Shown here one piece after another: positions 5,750 through 64,000 of a stretch of 64,000 nt of DNA. A program made the translations under genes and the position numbers. Each line of letters opens with the position of its first letter. Within the stretch, counting starts at the first letter, position 1. The stretch comes from Flaccisagitta enflata. Taxonomy: Eukaryota. The notes under the pieces are model-generated. The model was not told the DNA's origin. It ran no database searches and worked only from the letters and a program-made list of their open reading frames with translations. The stretch spans positions 8,246,001 to 8,310,000 of the forward strand of contig OZ231126.1 of the NCBI GenBank assembly GCA_965153355.1. Direction: 5' to 3'.

Positions 5750-6042
5750 GTTGCTACTCAAATTTTGTTTTACGTATAGATAAGTATTCACAATGGAAAG
5801 AAACAAGATCCGGATATACGACAAACCAGTCGCAAATAACATGGAAATGACATTATTGCCGCTCAGTTTCTATTTTCATAAATGACAAGCATTCGAAATT
5901 GAGTGGAGAGGCCGATAAAAAAACAACATGGAAGTGATAATGTTGCCACTCAATTCCTCAAAGCCAAAGCCAAAGCCAAAAGTGAGGTGATAAGGAAACA
6001 AGATAACGCTCGCTGAGAGTAGAAGGGAAGGCGAGGGAAAGC

Positions 6043-7967: not shown

Positions 7968-8724
7968 CTGCCATAGAAATACAAAGGACAGACAGATAGA
8001 ATAGGAAACTAGCCACAAAGAAGAAAAGTAAAGGGCAAAAATAAAGGGAACAGAAAAGAAAAAAAGGAAACGAGGATGAAAAGGGCAAAAATAAAGGGAA
8101 AGGGGGAAAAAAAAGAAAACGATGATGAAAAGGGCACAAACGGTTGCGCTCTTGTAGAAGCTTGAGTCAAGGACGTGGGCACCCTTAAATCGGGAACGAT
8201 TGTGACGGCATTACCGATATTTTTTTGCTGTTTTGTGTCATTTTGTGTCATTTTGTGTTATTTGTGCTATTTTGTCCTTAGCGGCGGTTATTTTTTAAAC
8301 CATGTGTCCCCATGTTCAAACGGACAGTCTACCAACATTCAAAATCTTTTTACTAGTGTTTGAATGATTACATTGTTTTGAGATTTAAAACTAGTTTTAA
8401 GTGATGCTTGATGCACACCACTGTAAAACGTGTCATCTCAATCGGACCAAATTTACGCGAGTCTCTGTGACAGTGTTGTTTATAGTAGTGGCGGTAGCCT
8501 TGGCGATGTTGTTGGTAGTTGCCTTGATGATGTTGTCCGCAGCGGCGGTGGTGTTGTTGTTGGTTGAAGTGGTGTTCGGTGTGTCGGTGTCAGTTGAGAA
8601 AGCGGTCTTTTTGTTGTTGCGGTTGTTGTTAAGATGGGGAATAAGAAAGACGATGACTGATCCGAAGTCACATCAGGCTGAGCGGGGTGAGCGGGGTGAG
8701 CGGGGTGAGCTTTTCCCAAATCCC

Positions 8725-11135: not shown

Positions 11136-11380
11136 TTTTTAGTTGCGGACACGCAACTCTATAAGAGGCTTTGTCCGTCCGTCCGTCCGTCCATCCGTCC
11201 GTTGGTCGGTCCGTCACGCTCGAGTTGAAAACGCAAGAAACACGCATTTACAATGCTGCAGTTGTCATTGAATGTGTGTGGTTGTATGTTAGTGTGTGGG
11301 AAGGGGGTTTGGGTGAGGCTGGGGGTTGGCTGCCCCTGCCCACCCGTCCGCAACGATATTGTGACCCCGCGTCACTTGTT
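11136..11380 (+). mobile_element. HINE-like element, third subfamily
   Basis: tttttagttgcggacacgcaactctataagaggc, (GTCC)n, cccacccgtccgcaacgat...ccccgcgtcacttgtt; degenerate copy at ~38790-38965. Confidence 0.6.
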
Positions 11381-14413: not shown

Positions 14414-14418
14414 TACAG

Positions 14419-45299
<30,881 letters not shown>

Positions 45300-48230
45300 T
45301 GATTGTACAAGTCATGAGAAAATGACTCATGTTTAAAAAAAAACAGTGATCACTGTAGTCTAATAATAATATAAAAAAAACACACACAAACGCCAGCGTG
45401 AGCATGCACGCACGCGAAACAACATCACACGCGCGGGCGTGTGTGTAACAACAACATCAACACAACGGCAATAGCAACAACAATAAAAACAACAACAACA
45501 TCATCAGCGTCTCGTCATTTGCATACTGAAGCTCAAAACACTGCCAAAAAAATGTCATCAAGAACAACATCGAAGCCTACATCAAACGACGCAACAACAA
45601 AAACAACATCAACATCAACATCAACATCAACATCCCCATCATCAACAACAACATCAAATCAAAGGCGCATCTTGATTCTTCTTACTCTCATTCTCTGGGA
45701 GAGTGTGCAAGCTTTAGAATAATCCCAGTGTTGTCAGGAAAAGTGTTGTTGTGTAGAAGTGTTGGTGTGTTAGCGAGGAACTTGAAATTCAGGAGGAGAG
45801 GGAGGGTATGTTTTCTTTTCTGGCGCTGGAGTCCCATCCATTGCTCCAACCTCTCTTATTCTTTAGAGACTGGCGCGATGACAATGTTACCATCGAAAAG
45901 AAAATAATTTTTGTTTAAAATTATCATCTTTTTAATTTAAAAAAAGAAAATACCGTCTCCTCTTTGTTTCTTGTTTCTTTGCTTTGTCCTGGTTTGTTCT
46001 AGTTCTGCGACCTTGCCCGAGAGAAAAAGAGAGAAAGAGAAGAAAAAGGAGAGCCTTTGTAATTTGTGATGGAGATGAAGAAAAAAAGAGAAGAAGATTT
46101 TGAAAAAGATATAAGTAGGGAAAAAAAAGAGAGTCTCTCATAATGAAAAAGCTTCTTCAATATAAAAATCAAGATCGCGGGCTGCTTGCAATTGCAAAAA
46201 AAGAAAAGTTAAAAAAGTTCGATCACCAGACCCTGACTGACAAATTCCGGATAACCCAAAACCCAAAACCCCAAAACCAAACAAAAAAACAATCACAACT
46301 AGTTGTGGAGACAATTCACAAAAAAAAAAAGAGATATTGTTAAAAATATCGCTGCTTCCATCTCCTCCCTAATTGTTATCGTGCACGAATGTTTACTCAA
46401 TTTTTTTTATATAAAAACAAAAGTAGGTTATTTATCTCCATATGATGCCAGGGAATCGATTTTTACACACGCTACAACACTGATCTTTACTGATACTTGT
46501 CAAACTCCATGAAACAGCCACATTTGATTAATGTACAGCATCAATTATATGTGTAAATTTTTCTGCGTTATAACGCTTTATAATTTGTTAGTTCGGAAAT
46601 TTGTGTATAAAAAGAAAATTTCATCTTTTTATAGTTTCTCACTCGCTTATCCCAAAAAAAAAACGAACAAAACCCTGCCAATTATGCATATCAATTTTTA
46701 CCAAAACTTGATAAATCTTTTTTTCTCCTCTTGTCCTTCTCTCTTCCTCCTCTTCCTCGTCTTCCTCTTCTTCCTCTTCTTCCTCTTCCTCTTCTTCCTC
46801 TTCCTTCCCTTCAACCCATTCGTATTCTCGATCTATTTAATTGACTTTGTGATAATAATGTTACCTAAATAGATTTGTTCATGTGATTACATGTCCTTCA
46901 GCCGAATTTCTTTGGACGTTATATTTTCGTTGATGAAAGGGACTTTATTTTTTTTTTCATTTCGTAATTAGGTGATAATTTGTCACATTTGAAATTTGAG
47001 AATTATCATGACATGGAGCTGAGTTGTTATTCTCATGTGGTGTCATGTTATGTCCTTTCATCTCATGCCATGTCATGTTATGTCCTTTCGTGTCATTTCA
47101 TTTCATGTGATAGAACATCTCCGTTCTGTGAAAAAGGGTAATTTCTCTCCAATTAGTGCCCTGAGGTGCCAATACTCGAAATTGCTTTTCTTTAATGCCT
47201 TTTGATTCTCAAACTTGATTTTCATAATGATTAAAAATACATGACTACAATCTGGGCGCGTAATTATAAACCCACCACTGATGTGCCTTCCATGACCACT
47301 CTTGCATACTTAGTCAAAGCATTTATATGTATACATACCCAAGTGTATTTTGATTTCAACAATGGTGCTAAAAACAAAACAAAAAAACAAATCGTAACCT
47401 CAGTGCAATTTTCTTTTAGACATAGTAATTTTGCGCGGATGTTTGTTTCTTTCATTAATGTTTATATTTTTCTTTTTTTTCTTCTTGTGAATTGAAGTAA
47501 AGCAGTGAAGAGGAGAGGGGCGGACATGAGTGAAATGGCGAATTCCATCAAGCGATGCTGCCCTCTTTCCCTTACTAGGTCCAACTTCAATTCTACTTCC
47601 TTTTTTTCATCATTCTATATAAAACATCGCTGCTCATTTAGCTCATTTCATATAAATTCATCATTGATAACGACGGAGGCAACCATTTTACGTACATCAC
47701 CTTACCTGTCATGCTCTTTTTTTTCTTCTTTTTTTTAAACATCACCTTTTTTTTTTCTTTTTTCATTTCTTTCTCTCTGAAAACTCCTGCAATATTCTTT
47801 TTTTTTCTTCTATTCTTCATTGAAAAAAAAAAATCCAACCAGCCATTTTCGGAAACCCAGAAAAAAAATACTGCTTTAACGGACAACAAAACACGCACAC
47901 TCTCTCTCATTTTTTTTTTTTCAATTCCGTTTTTTTTTATCTGCATTCGAAAAAAACGTCTAAACATTGTTGACTTTTGAATTTCCTGCTCTCGACTTGA
48001 CTAGGAAGGAATCACGAAGGCGGGCGCCGATGTTTAGACACAAAAAACACAATTCAATTAGTGACACAATTTTTGCTGTGAAATTACTTGTTAACATACA
48101 TTGAATTCACATTCTTTCACATGAATTTGAATATGAATATGACCAAATTAAAACAAATTTACCGTGTTTTTTTTCTATTAATTCATCCGCCCTTAGTTCA
48201 TTAAATAAAAAAAAGTTATTTGTTTATTTC
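45300..48230 (+). other. Putative long 3' UTR of the collagen gene
   Basis: AU-rich, lacks the TEs and long microsatellites seen on both sides; ATTAAA near 47230 and 48147, AATAAA 48204-48209 followed by U-rich sequence; true 3' end unknown. Confidence 0.45.
47350..47370 (+). promoter_or_regulatory. miR-29-family target site (8mer TGGTGCTA plus extended 3' pairing)
   Basis: t-TGATTTCA-ac-AATGGTGCTA is the reverse complement of miR-29b nt 1-18 (UAGCACCAUUUGAAAUCA, recalled sequence) with a 2-nt bulge. Confidence 0.7.
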
Positions 48231-49371
48231 TTTGAAATTTTTCTCTATTATCTTTCTTTTTCTCTACTCATCTCATTATTTTATTTTTTTTTCTTAAATC
48301 ATGTTTCCTTCAAAAGGACCCATGGACAAATACAATTTCTTACGCAACATCCCGCGCAGCTTCATTCCAGAATCACAATTTGCATAACTAAAAAGTTGAA
48401 AAAGATTAAGTTAGTTATCTCAAACCTTTGTCCAGTGTAGACCAGTTGTCGCTTTTTAGGTGCGCCAACGCACCCCTTATAGGGCCTTATAAGCGGTCGG
48501 CTCCGTCCATCCATCGGTCTGTCCGTCACGCAAACGTTTCATGATCCACACGGCGCACCTATATTGGTCTACTTGGCCTTGTATTTAGTCGCATGCACGT
48601 GTCTCAAGAGGTTGGAAAATTGTCGTTGCAGCCAAGAAATCGAACCCGGGTTTATACATCGAGGTTTTTTTTTGGTTGGTGACTGGTGAGTGGTTGGTAA
48701 GTGATTGGAGATGGATAACAGGGCATTTTTGAACTAGGGTTAACATACGGACATACGGACGGACGGACGGACGGACGGACAGACCCTACAATTGGCAACA
48801 GTCGAAGACGATTTGGCTGGGACAGTATCAAGAAAACATGCACAACTCTTGATTGACTAAAAAATCCCTAAAAAAGCGACGGGCCGACACAGCAACGTGT
48901 TAAGTCGCGTGTCCGCGTCTAAAATGAAAGTGCGACAAAAATAAACGGTCGTTACGGAAGATGAAACATGATGATAATGAAGTTAGTGTCATTGGACATG
49001 AACTATTTGGCCGTTCGTATCTCAATCACCTCTTTCCACGTGTGTCCTTTGAGAGCATGTTGTGGGTCGGTAATTGATTCCAAATTAAGGTTTCAAACAA
49101 GTACCCCGGGGGTACAACGATGCGTCCACATGCGGCTTAGCTTGTTAATGACAACTTCTCTCTCTCTCTCTCTCTCTCGCTCAACAATGCATCAGCCCAA
49201 TGTCAGAACCTGATGAAATCGACGGACAAAGCCTCTTATAGAGATGCGTGGACGCATCTAAAAACCTAACGAAAGAGGAAGTTGCAAAACTTTTCATTAA
49301 AGATGGGTAAAACTTTTGGGATAAATTTAGGCGTGAAAATCCTTATTTGCATAATGCAGTGTTACAACACC

Positions 49372-62741: not shown

Positions 62742-64000
62742 TCTTTAAACGGGTGTTATTTCTCTTAGCATATTTCTATATTACTACTTAACATTCATCG
62801 ATGGTAGTTTAATGAATTATGAATCTTACATTGTTTTTGGATATTCATTGCTGTTCATTTCTGGAATTCTTTTCAAAATTTCTCTCCAGTGTCTGTAGTC
62901 TTGACTTAAGGGTACGGATATCACCAAAATGATAAGTACCAGAGAGCGATTCATGAAGTATGGATATTCTGAAGAAAGTGTTATTCCCTATTGTTTTAAA
63001 AAAACTATTAAACTGCATGAATCTTGGTGTGGAGTCTCAAAATGGAAGCGCTCAGCATTTGTTCTATCATCAAGAGAATATGAGCATGCTTTCAGGTCAA
63101 ACTGACCTACCACCCATCAACCCAATGGGCTAGACGGCTAGTATCGATAAAAGTTGGATAACTAATTTTTCATCAATTTCGTCGAAACTTGGTGTGAAAT
63201 CATTACATAGAAAACATACGTACAACCAATCACCATTATAATGAGCTGGATACACGGCAAACCAGTCGCGAACGGTTGGGCAGAAGCGGTAATGCAAAAA
63301 CCGCTCGCAATTCAAAAATGTTACCAACGGACGGACGGACCGACTATGCAAGGTATAGAGTCGCGTATAAATATAACTTTGTTAATTTTCAATTTAGTTC
63401 CAACCTTGTATTAAGGACATAATGTTCTGTTGTCTTGGTCCGTCCGACGTTCAATCAGTTTTTCACTCCGTCCATCCGTCACACTTGAACTTTTTAGTCG
63501 CGTGCTACGCGACTCTACACCCCGCTATGTCGGTCCGTCGGTCGGTTGGTCGGTTGGTCGGTCGGTCGGTCGGTCGGTCGGTCGGTTGGTCGGTCCTCTT
63601 TTTGGGCAGCGGCCCCGAAGGGGTCGGTGACCTATGCTTTCACACATATGGGGAATTTTCTCTTTCTTCTCCTCCTCCACCTCCTTCTTCTTCTTCTCCG
63701 CCCCCACTCAAATCCAAGTCTTGTTCATCAGTCCATCTTTCTGTCTACCCCCACCCACCGATCAGGCCTCTCAAGCCTGAAATATGTCCTCTCAGGCCTG
63801 ACATTTGCCCTCTCAGGCTGGAAATCTGCCCTCTCAGACCTGGAACATATCCTCTCAGGTCTGAAATATGCCCTCTTAAGCCTGAAATCTACTCTCTCAG
63901 GCTTTGATTCTTTCCTCCCAACCCTCTTCATTTCAGCTCTCTTGGGCCTGAAATCAGCCCTCAGGCCTCTAATAGACCCTCTTCTGACGTCAAACTGCCC

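Follow-up and report, generated by a model that had tools for sequence, protein, structure and literature searches.

A 64,000-nucleotide (nt) stretch of Flaccisagitta enflata DNA (GenBank assembly GCA_965153355.1, contig OZ231126.1, positions 8,246,001 to 8,310,000 of the forward strand; this whole stretch is referred to below as the window) contains a fibrillar procollagen gene, and we find that the sequence 3′ of its stop codon includes a 20-nt element (47351–47370, plus strand) with extended complementarity to the microRNA (miRNA) miR-29. We propose that this element is probably a high-affinity, non-sliceable repression site for the miR-29 family in the collagen 3′ untranslated region (UTR), and that the link it represents would predate vertebrates. 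We favor this reading because the site is beyond what chance would be expected to yield, because its seed match is kept in the orthologous transcript of a related species, and because miR-29 seed matches are enriched in the 3′ regions of 12 collagen loci. Repression of fibrillar collagens by miR-29 is among the best-known and most medically pursued miRNA circuits, in both fibrosis and ageing, and is usually treated as a vertebrate story.

Predicted pairing between the element and miR-29

The element begins 2,052 nt 3′ of the collagen stop codon (TGA, 45297–45299, plus strand) and, on the plus strand, reads TGATTTCA at 47351–47358, AC at 47359–47360, and AATGGTGCTA at 47361–47370. As the mature miRNA for all duplexes we employed the 22-nt Pm-miR-29a of pearl oyster, taken from a primer in Table 1 of PMC4691125, and we computed pairing with ViennaRNA duplexfold; the miRNA sequence quoted in a preliminary description of this DNA was left aside. 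In the resulting duplex, miRNA nt 1–10 pair with 47361–47370, nt 11–18 pair with 47351–47358, a G:U pair joins nt 19 to position 47350, and nt 20–22 of the 22-nt invertebrate form remain unpaired. The duplex as a whole has an energy of −22.7 kcal/mol, with −13.7 kcal/mol coming from the 5′ part and −8.8 kcal/mol from the 3′ part. The preliminary description had placed the site about 2.05 kb past the stop codon and had claimed this same pairing, including the AC bulge, the G:U at nt 19, and the lack of pairing at the last miRNA nucleotides; the position agrees, and duplexfold reproduced the pairing exactly.

The duplex can be divided into four parts, all on the plus strand. At 47363–47370 lies an 8mer seed match, TGGTGCTA, which is the complement of miR-29 nt 2–8 plus an A opposite nt 1, and the adjoining AA at 47361–47362, complementary to miRNA nt 9–10, lengthens the seed helix to 10 base pairs (bp). 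The 3′ pairing block occupies 47350–47358 and consists of TGATTTCA paired with nt 11–18 together with the G:U pair between T47350 and nt 19. Between these two helices, the AC at 47359–47360 forms a target-side bulge that separates the nucleotides paired to miRNA nt 10 and nt 11, which is the slicing position; within miRNA nt 1–19, no miRNA nucleotide is unpaired. Slicing needs uninterrupted pairing around the scissile phosphate, and because the 2-nt bulge interrupts pairing at nt 10/11, slicing should be prevented at this site.

Improbability of the site by chance

The 20-mer occurs once in the window, and the expected number of matches with at most three mismatches is 0.03. Similarly, the only plus-strand copy of GGTGCT between the stop codon and position 48400 is the one in the seed match of the site, and for one given miRNA only a few hundredths of an 8mer are expected in 2.9 kb. 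We evaluated the 3′ pairing separately, taking the seed as given and scoring the 25 nt upstream of it against miRNA nt 11–22. None of 2,864 other 25-nt segments of the same UTR reached −8.8 kcal/mol (the best gave −7.1). Among 20,000 random 25-mers matched for composition, 58 attained this energy. Runs of eight or more contiguous Watson-Crick pairs to miRNA nt 9–22 were found in 830 of 200,000 random 25-mers. The joint occurrence of seed and 3′ pairing in the absence of selection is very unlikely, even allowing for tens of recognizable conserved miRNAs.

A seed match at the orthologous position in a related species

A protein-based scan, detailed below, yielded a metagenome-derived contig, L001, which was found via protein similarity only. 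It contains an uninterrupted open reading frame (ORF) of 1,483 amino acids with a signal-like start, a VWC domain, a triple helix, and a COLFI domain. This ORF is colinear with the exons of the window from 14418 to 45296, at identities of 81–96% in the helix exons and 51–71% in the C-propeptide exons, and its best protein match is the unnamed protein P0003 (99.6% identity). Because an uninterrupted ORF is here colinear with a multi-exon gene, we take L001 to be a spliced mRNA, transcribed from a close orthologue that belongs to a related species.

The 3′ UTR of L001 is 1,752 nt in length, and it has islands in common with the window that are colinear and lie to either side of the site (blastn, window plus strand). 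On the upstream side these lie at 46279–46312 (E = 4e-10), 46355–46394 (E = 1.4e-9), 46423–46440 (E = 0.016), and 47152–47178 (E = 0.055, colinear), the last of them preceding the seed match by 186 nt in the window and by 145 nt in L001. Downstream of the site, an island at 48026–48081 (E = 0.055) is the best local alignment in that part of both sequences, with a score of 33 that was reached by 9 of 300 shuffles. The presence of this downstream island is an argument for a UTR that extends beyond the site.

Between the L001 counterparts of the 47152–47178 and 48026–48081 islands, and thus inside the transcript contig, GGTGCTA is found at position 5943, 986 nt after the stop codon. With the same miRNA, the predicted L001 duplex pairs nt 1–7 (a 7mer-A1 seed match), continues across a 3×3 loop, and pairs nt 11–15, for −14.3 kcal/mol. 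When the 46-nt site region of the window was aligned to the 474-nt L001 interval, the best local alignment fell exactly on the GGTGCTA site (TTTC-A.AA-GGTGCTAAAA...ACAAAA), with a score reached by 36 of 2,000 shuffles; this holds for local alignment, and in a global alignment with MAFFT the two seeds were offset by one column. The one close orthologue at hand therefore keeps the seed match at the orthologous position, as a 7mer-A1, together with TTTCA, the core of the 3′ helix; it lacks the 8mer, the full 8–9 bp helix, and the 2-nt bulge. Conservation of TGATTTCA, which the preliminary description had made a condition of its proposal, is thus borne out for TTTCA in this single orthologue and not for the full block.

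Two further sequences in the shared islands stand out. The strongest island (E = 4e-10) contains a perfect 14-nt palindrome, CACAACTAGTTGTG, at 46294–46307 (L001 5291–5304), and 3′ of it a second conserved block, TTGTTATCGTGCACGAATGTTT, spans 46373–46394. Both are candidates for further regulatory elements.

Seed enrichment across collagen 3′ regions

The protein-based scan returned 21 loci, 15 of which reach the collagen C-terminus; in the remaining six (L016–L021) the match stops short of the stop codon, and these were left out. L009, L012, and L014 were removed for redundancy with L008, L010, and L013, respectively, which left a test set of 12 non-redundant loci with 18,819 nt within 3 kb past their stop codons. 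Because the window's own UTR was left out of this set, the test carries no ascertainment bias. None of the 12 loci closely resembles any named vertebrate collagen, and, L001 aside, their best identity to the compared proteins is at most 49%. Judged by reading-frame continuity, nine of the loci appear to be spliced mRNA and the other three genomic DNA.

Across the 12 collagen 3′ regions, GGTGCT occurs 13 times, in eight loci. Sites for miR-29 of at least 7mer class number 10, in six loci, which amounts to an approximately 6-fold over-representation: 59 control 6-mer cores of the same composition gave a mean of 1.64 sites, and none of the 59 reached 10. The antisense strand of the same 3′ regions contains one site of at least 7mer class, versus the 10 in sense. 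Among all 4,096 cores, 48 reach a count of 10, and since these raw counts are dominated by A/T-rich words, we made a composition-corrected ranking based on a first-order Markov model for each UTR. Under this model GGTGCTA (six observed, 0.65 expected) and TGGTGCT (eight observed, 1.11 expected) rank 15th and 16th of 16,384 7-mers, after mostly simple repeats.

Two individual loci add to this picture. In a seventh locus, L003, an 8mer lies 3,069 nt past the stop codon. L011, a distant fibrillar collagen on a genomic contig, carries an 8mer 105 nt past its stop (8003–8018); upstream of this 8mer, GCTGATT is predicted to pair with miRNA nt 14–20, giving −7.3 kcal/mol for the 3′ part and −20.1 kcal/mol in total. 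On the predicted duplex, we regard L011 as another example of extended 3′ pairing, independent of the first.

The same comparison brought up words unrelated to the miR-29 seed. GAATGTA, TGTAGAT, ATGAAGA, and CAGCCAC are also strongly over-represented relative to the Markov model in the 12 collagen 3′ regions, and these may be binding motifs for other factors. Some over-represented words fall in islands common to the window and L001, an example being GTAGGTTATTTATCTCC at 46423.

The host gene is a predicted fibrillar procollagen

From its predicted domains (VWC, triple helix, and COLFI), we classify the host gene as an A-clade-type fibrillar procollagen. It spans approximately 14.4 kb to 45.3 kb of the window, about 31 kb, and is interrupted by many introns. 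Near its 5′ end a VWC exon is found at 14418–14603 (plus strand; Pfam VWC, E = 2.8e-12). At the other end, a COLFI exon at 44195–44380 (Pfam) precedes the last coding exon at 44931–45299 (plus strand), which encodes C-propeptide sequence with a COLFI match (Pfam, E = 6.8e-50) and closes with the stop codon. The intervening helix exons are colinear with the L001 ORF, in which Pfam detects Collagen, COLFI, and VWC.

P0001, a protein predicted from JGI and Logan RNA-type assemblies, matches the gene with 100% identity over its residues 62–287, encoded by three exons, of which residues 166–287 match the last exon at 100% identity. Because this RNA-derived protein is identical to the gene across three exons, we conclude that the collagen gene is expressed. 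Near-identical sequence is also present in marine and plankton RNA runs from seven studies, which points to a marine planktonic animal or larva as the source. In protein searches, the nearest named proteins were vertebrate collagens, with 55–58% identity in the last exon, followed by a mealybug collagen at 47% and mite collagens at 41–43%; a protein atlas and the names of protein clusters yielded no closer relative.

The coding exons themselves contain five 7mer-m8 matches to the miR-29 seed (TGGTGCT at 39137, 39404, 39879, 40315, and 40351, plus strand), and all five are in frame as Gly-Ala (GGT GCT). The miR-29 seed complement is in this sense a natural by-product of collagen coding, which could bear on the origin of the link between the miRNA and collagen.

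Proposed extent of the 3′ UTR and likely inclusion of the site

We propose a long 3′ UTR of about 2.9 kb, from 45300 to 48230 on the plus strand. This extent is suggested by the islands colinear with the L001 3′ UTR together with poly(A) hexamers: a hexamer scan located a canonical AATAAA at 48204–48209, after the last conserved island, and this is the likely poly(A) signal of a long isoform ending just past it. The scan identified two more hexamers on the plus strand, an AATAAA at 45482–45487, 185 nt after the stop codon, and an ATTAAA at 47230–47235, 120 nt upstream of the site, the latter already pointed out at this position in the preliminary description. Use of the former could yield a short isoform without the site, and use of the latter would likewise give an isoform that lacks it. 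Shorter site-free isoforms may be common.

RNA data offer weak support for the presence of the site in the mRNA. In four RNA runs from one study, a fraction of 0.68–0.77 of the sampled words of 44930–48400 was present, without localization to positions within that interval. The coding share of the interval is 11%. Since the site sits at fraction 0.70 of the interval, a share of 0.77 must take in the site if the covered part is one block. In addition, the gene's own 90% cluster has members on contigs of up to 7,801 nt, approximately the length expected of a full mRNA with a 2.9-kb UTR; contigs behind the closer relatives P0002, P0004, and P0005 reach 7,044 nt. The site would lie within the mature mRNA of the species, and it is likely that at least one mature isoform carries it.

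Inside the proposed 3′ UTR, we also observed an imperfect tandem repeat with units like CATGTCATGTTATGTCCTTTC at 47020–47100 (plus strand); it is absent from the L001 UTR.

Proposed mode of action and alternative explanations

If the element is a repression site, AGO loaded with miR-29 would dock on the 8mer at 47363–47370. The helix would then extend to miRNA nt 10, and a second helix of eight Watson-Crick pairs and one G:U would form on miRNA nt 11–19, the 2-nt target bulge at nt 10/11 permitting both helices while stopping slicing. We would expect the collagen mRNA to undergo ordinary GW182-mediated repression and deadenylation, the affinity exceeding that of a seed-only site; binding of miR-29 would thus repress the collagen mRNA. 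Were several miR-29 paralogues to exist, the site would favor one with a matching 3′ half.

Several observations weigh against this proposal. The two hexamers at 45482 and 47230 both lie upstream of the site; three oligo-dT runs contain just 0.49 of the words of 44930–48400 and other runs 0.26–0.45; and the site may accordingly be confined to a minor long isoform. In the single close orthologue the seed is weaker (7mer-A1) and five of the 8–9 3′ pairs remain, and the statistics for the downstream island (9/300) and for the site alignment (36/2,000) are just moderately significant. The 12 loci could stem from few lineages, so that the enrichment may be narrow in its spread across phyla. That the species expresses a miR-29 of matching sequence we infer from the improbability of the site and from the seed enrichment, and Rfam searches covering the whole window at the gathering score and 47100–47650 at E up to 10 found no mir-29 gene there. 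Finally, the site is predicted to be of average accessibility (P(unpaired) = 0.23, 62nd percentile), which is hence uninformative.

Some of these points also bear on the alternative that survives best, namely that the element has no function, being a chance or relic complement that either lies outside the mature mRNA or belongs to an animal without a matching miR-29. The upstream poly(A)-type hexamers at 45482 and 47230 would fit such a reading, as would the RNA runs, most of which contain less than half of the words of 44930–48400, and we infer both the transcript end and the species' miR-29. However, chance is very unlikely to produce pairing this strong, the spliced mRNA L001 retains the seed between the corresponding islands, conservation persists downstream of the site, and seed matches in collagen 3′ regions are enriched, with 10 in sense against one in antisense. 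We therefore consider an element without function unlikely.

A second alternative is that the collagen transcript acts on the miRNA rather than the reverse. In this scenario, which provided the headline of the preliminary description, an abundant collagen mRNA would either drive ZSWIM8/Dora-dependent decay of miR-29 through target-directed miRNA degradation (TDMD) or titrate miR-29 as a sponge, in each case lowering its own repressor. Several features are compatible with it. The site combines an 8mer with A-rich flanks and eight contiguous Watson-Crick 3′ pairs (nt 11–18) plus one G:U (nt 19), and among the validated triggers in the available text of PMC10899785, 12 of 13 have at least six contiguous 3′ pairs, the trigger m169 having just six. 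The bulge at nt 10/11 would stop slicing, as the loops in triggers do, and the collagen mRNA is plentiful enough for assembly in many marine RNA runs. According to the same text, moreover, the rules for triggers are drawn from few examples, and 3′ pairing is dispensable for some ZSWIM8 substrates (PMC10899785).

When set against six sequence features of TDMD, however, the element shows two, the seed match and the run of at least six contiguous 3′ pairs, and lacks the other four. Its 3′ pairing energy of −8.8 kcal/mol, calculated with ViennaRNA, is weaker than that of every trigger listed in the available text of PMC10899785 (−9.6 to −17.1, median −13.5 kcal/mol, calculated with RNAstructure), a narrow miss in a comparison that is approximate across the two programs. 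Triggers described there have 3–11 unpaired nt, with pairing disrupted at miRNA nt 9–10 (PMC10899785), whereas nt 9–10 are paired here, with two target nucleotides bulged and zero miRNA nucleotides looped out. Base pairs with the 3′ terminus of the miRNA, which extract it from the PAZ pocket, are missing: nt 20–22 are unpaired, and so nothing draws the end out. Lastly, the extended pairing is not conserved, the one orthologue, L001, having just 5 bp of 3′ pairing at nt 11–15.

We accordingly find it quite improbable that the site is a TDMD trigger or sponge, and equally doubtful that a collagen mRNA degrading or sequestering miR-29 constitutes a mutually antagonistic switch between matrix and miR-29 that predates the vertebrate NREP/libra trigger. 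The preliminary description fared differently in its two halves. Its headline of a TDMD trigger is not sustained, given the weak 3′ energy, the absence of a central miRNA loop and of 3′-end pairing, and the lack of conservation of the extended pairing. Its fallback, an ancient miR-29/collagen circuit or strong supplementary site, finds support in the chance controls, the L001 seed match, and the enrichment across 12 loci.

A third possibility, that the minus strand encodes a miR-29-like precursor, as gene or pseudogene, and that the element is therefore not a target, has as its sole point that the reverse complement looks like the mature miRNA carrying a 2-nt insertion, and we reject it as scarcely credible: the minus strand of 47290–47450 folds at −25.4 kcal/mol (z = +0.89), with 163 of 200 shuffles folding at least as well, the Rfam searches gave zero matches for the whole window at the gathering score and seven chance-level matches for 47100–47650 at E up to 10, none of them mir-29 (RF00074), and the two other plus-strand copies of TAGCACCA/AGCACCA (53897 and 30769) do not go on as miR-29. 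A search of L001–L003 against Rfam at the gathering score likewise returned zero matches.

Comparison with known miR-29 sites and miRNA target architectures

In vertebrates, miR-29 sites in the 3′ UTRs of COL1A1, COL1A2, COL3A1, and other collagens make up a classic anti-fibrotic axis. The window site shares with these the seed, a COLFI-containing fibrillar procollagen as target, a location in the 3′ UTR, and a presumed repressive outcome. It differs in its non-vertebrate host, whose C-propeptide is 55–58% identical to those of the nearest named vertebrate collagens, and in standing alone, 2 kb into the UTR, rather than being one of several. Unlike ordinary seed sites, it pairs miRNA nt 1–19 with a 2-nt bulge and thus has far greater 3′ complementarity. 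By analogy, we propose that the window element may be an invertebrate counterpart of the vertebrate link between miR-29 and fibrillar collagen.

In its predicted architecture, the site resembles two known classes in part. Sites of the 3′-supplementary type, as described in the available text of PMC10899785, combine a seed with pairing centered on nt 13–16 across a small loop, and in the window site, likewise, the seed helix is followed after a short offset by a second helix that begins in the range of nt 11–13. The L001 site, with its 7mer-A1, 3×3 loop, and 5 bp, is a textbook predicted example of this type; the window site departs from it in having 8–9 pairs, compared with the usual 3–5. With the NREP/libra TDMD site for miR-29b, as presented in that same text (PMC10899785), the window site shares the miRNA, the combination of a seed with a long 3′ helix, a break near the slicing position, and location in a 3′ UTR or long noncoding RNA. 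In contrast to NREP/libra, its pairing ends at nt 19, its break is a 2-nt target bulge with zero unpaired miRNA nucleotides, its 3′ helix is weaker than that of every trigger listed in the text (PMC10899785), and its extended pairing is not conserved in L001. As modeled, the structure would therefore lie between a 3′-supplementary site and the NREP/libra miR-29b trigger.

Members of the miR-29 family exist outside vertebrates; they are not known from cnidarians or sponges. The available text of PMC4691125 gives Pm-miR-29a of pearl oyster as identical to cte-miR-29a of the annelid Capitella, and that of PMC13525870 reports that tsu-miR-29-3p of the nematode Trichuris suis lowers human COL1A1, the repression of which serves as a miR-29 read-out there. 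The first 19–20 nt of these invertebrate miR-29s match the window site. The targets treated in the available parts of the two papers are Y2R (PMC4691125) and host collagen (PMC13525870), not a fibrillar collagen of the animal's own, and in the text of PMC6429463 that was available, miR-29 appears in a reference only. In the full-text literature, subscription journals and supplementary files aside, we found no report of a miR-29-family miRNA that targets an invertebrate's own fibrillar collagen.

To our knowledge, very few miRNA-target pairs are conserved beyond vertebrates. The present case involves a non-vertebrate collagen, a 19-nt complement to an invertebrate miR-29, and a seed match kept in a related species. 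In addition, seed matches for miR-29 rank with the most over-represented 7-mers in marine fibrillar-collagen 3′ UTRs that were gathered blind to their UTR content, by protein similarity only. If borne out by small-RNA and reporter data, the link between miR-29 and collagen would date to early bilaterians, and this would help to explain why the whole mature miR-29, and not just its seed, is nearly unchanged. It would also supply a naturally occurring site, of an architecture between the supplementary and TDMD types, with which the boundary between repression and miRNA decay could be probed.

Repeats in and around the collagen gene

The introns of the collagen gene (window 1–45000) are rich in long microsatellites, including (CA)n, (GA)n, (GAT)n, (CTT)n, and others. 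Examples are found at 28170–28990, 34780–35470, and 44743–44925, and a (CA)n run of approximately 180 nt stops 5 nt upstream of the last coding exon. In the window, ORF-like repeat fragments also occur on both strands, at 11165–11230, 29600–29760 (minus strand), 42670–42997, 48483–48867, and 63398–63998. These fragments carry runs such as SVGRSVGR or VRPSVRPS and ATRLYT motifs, and are probably members of a dispersed family of repeats.

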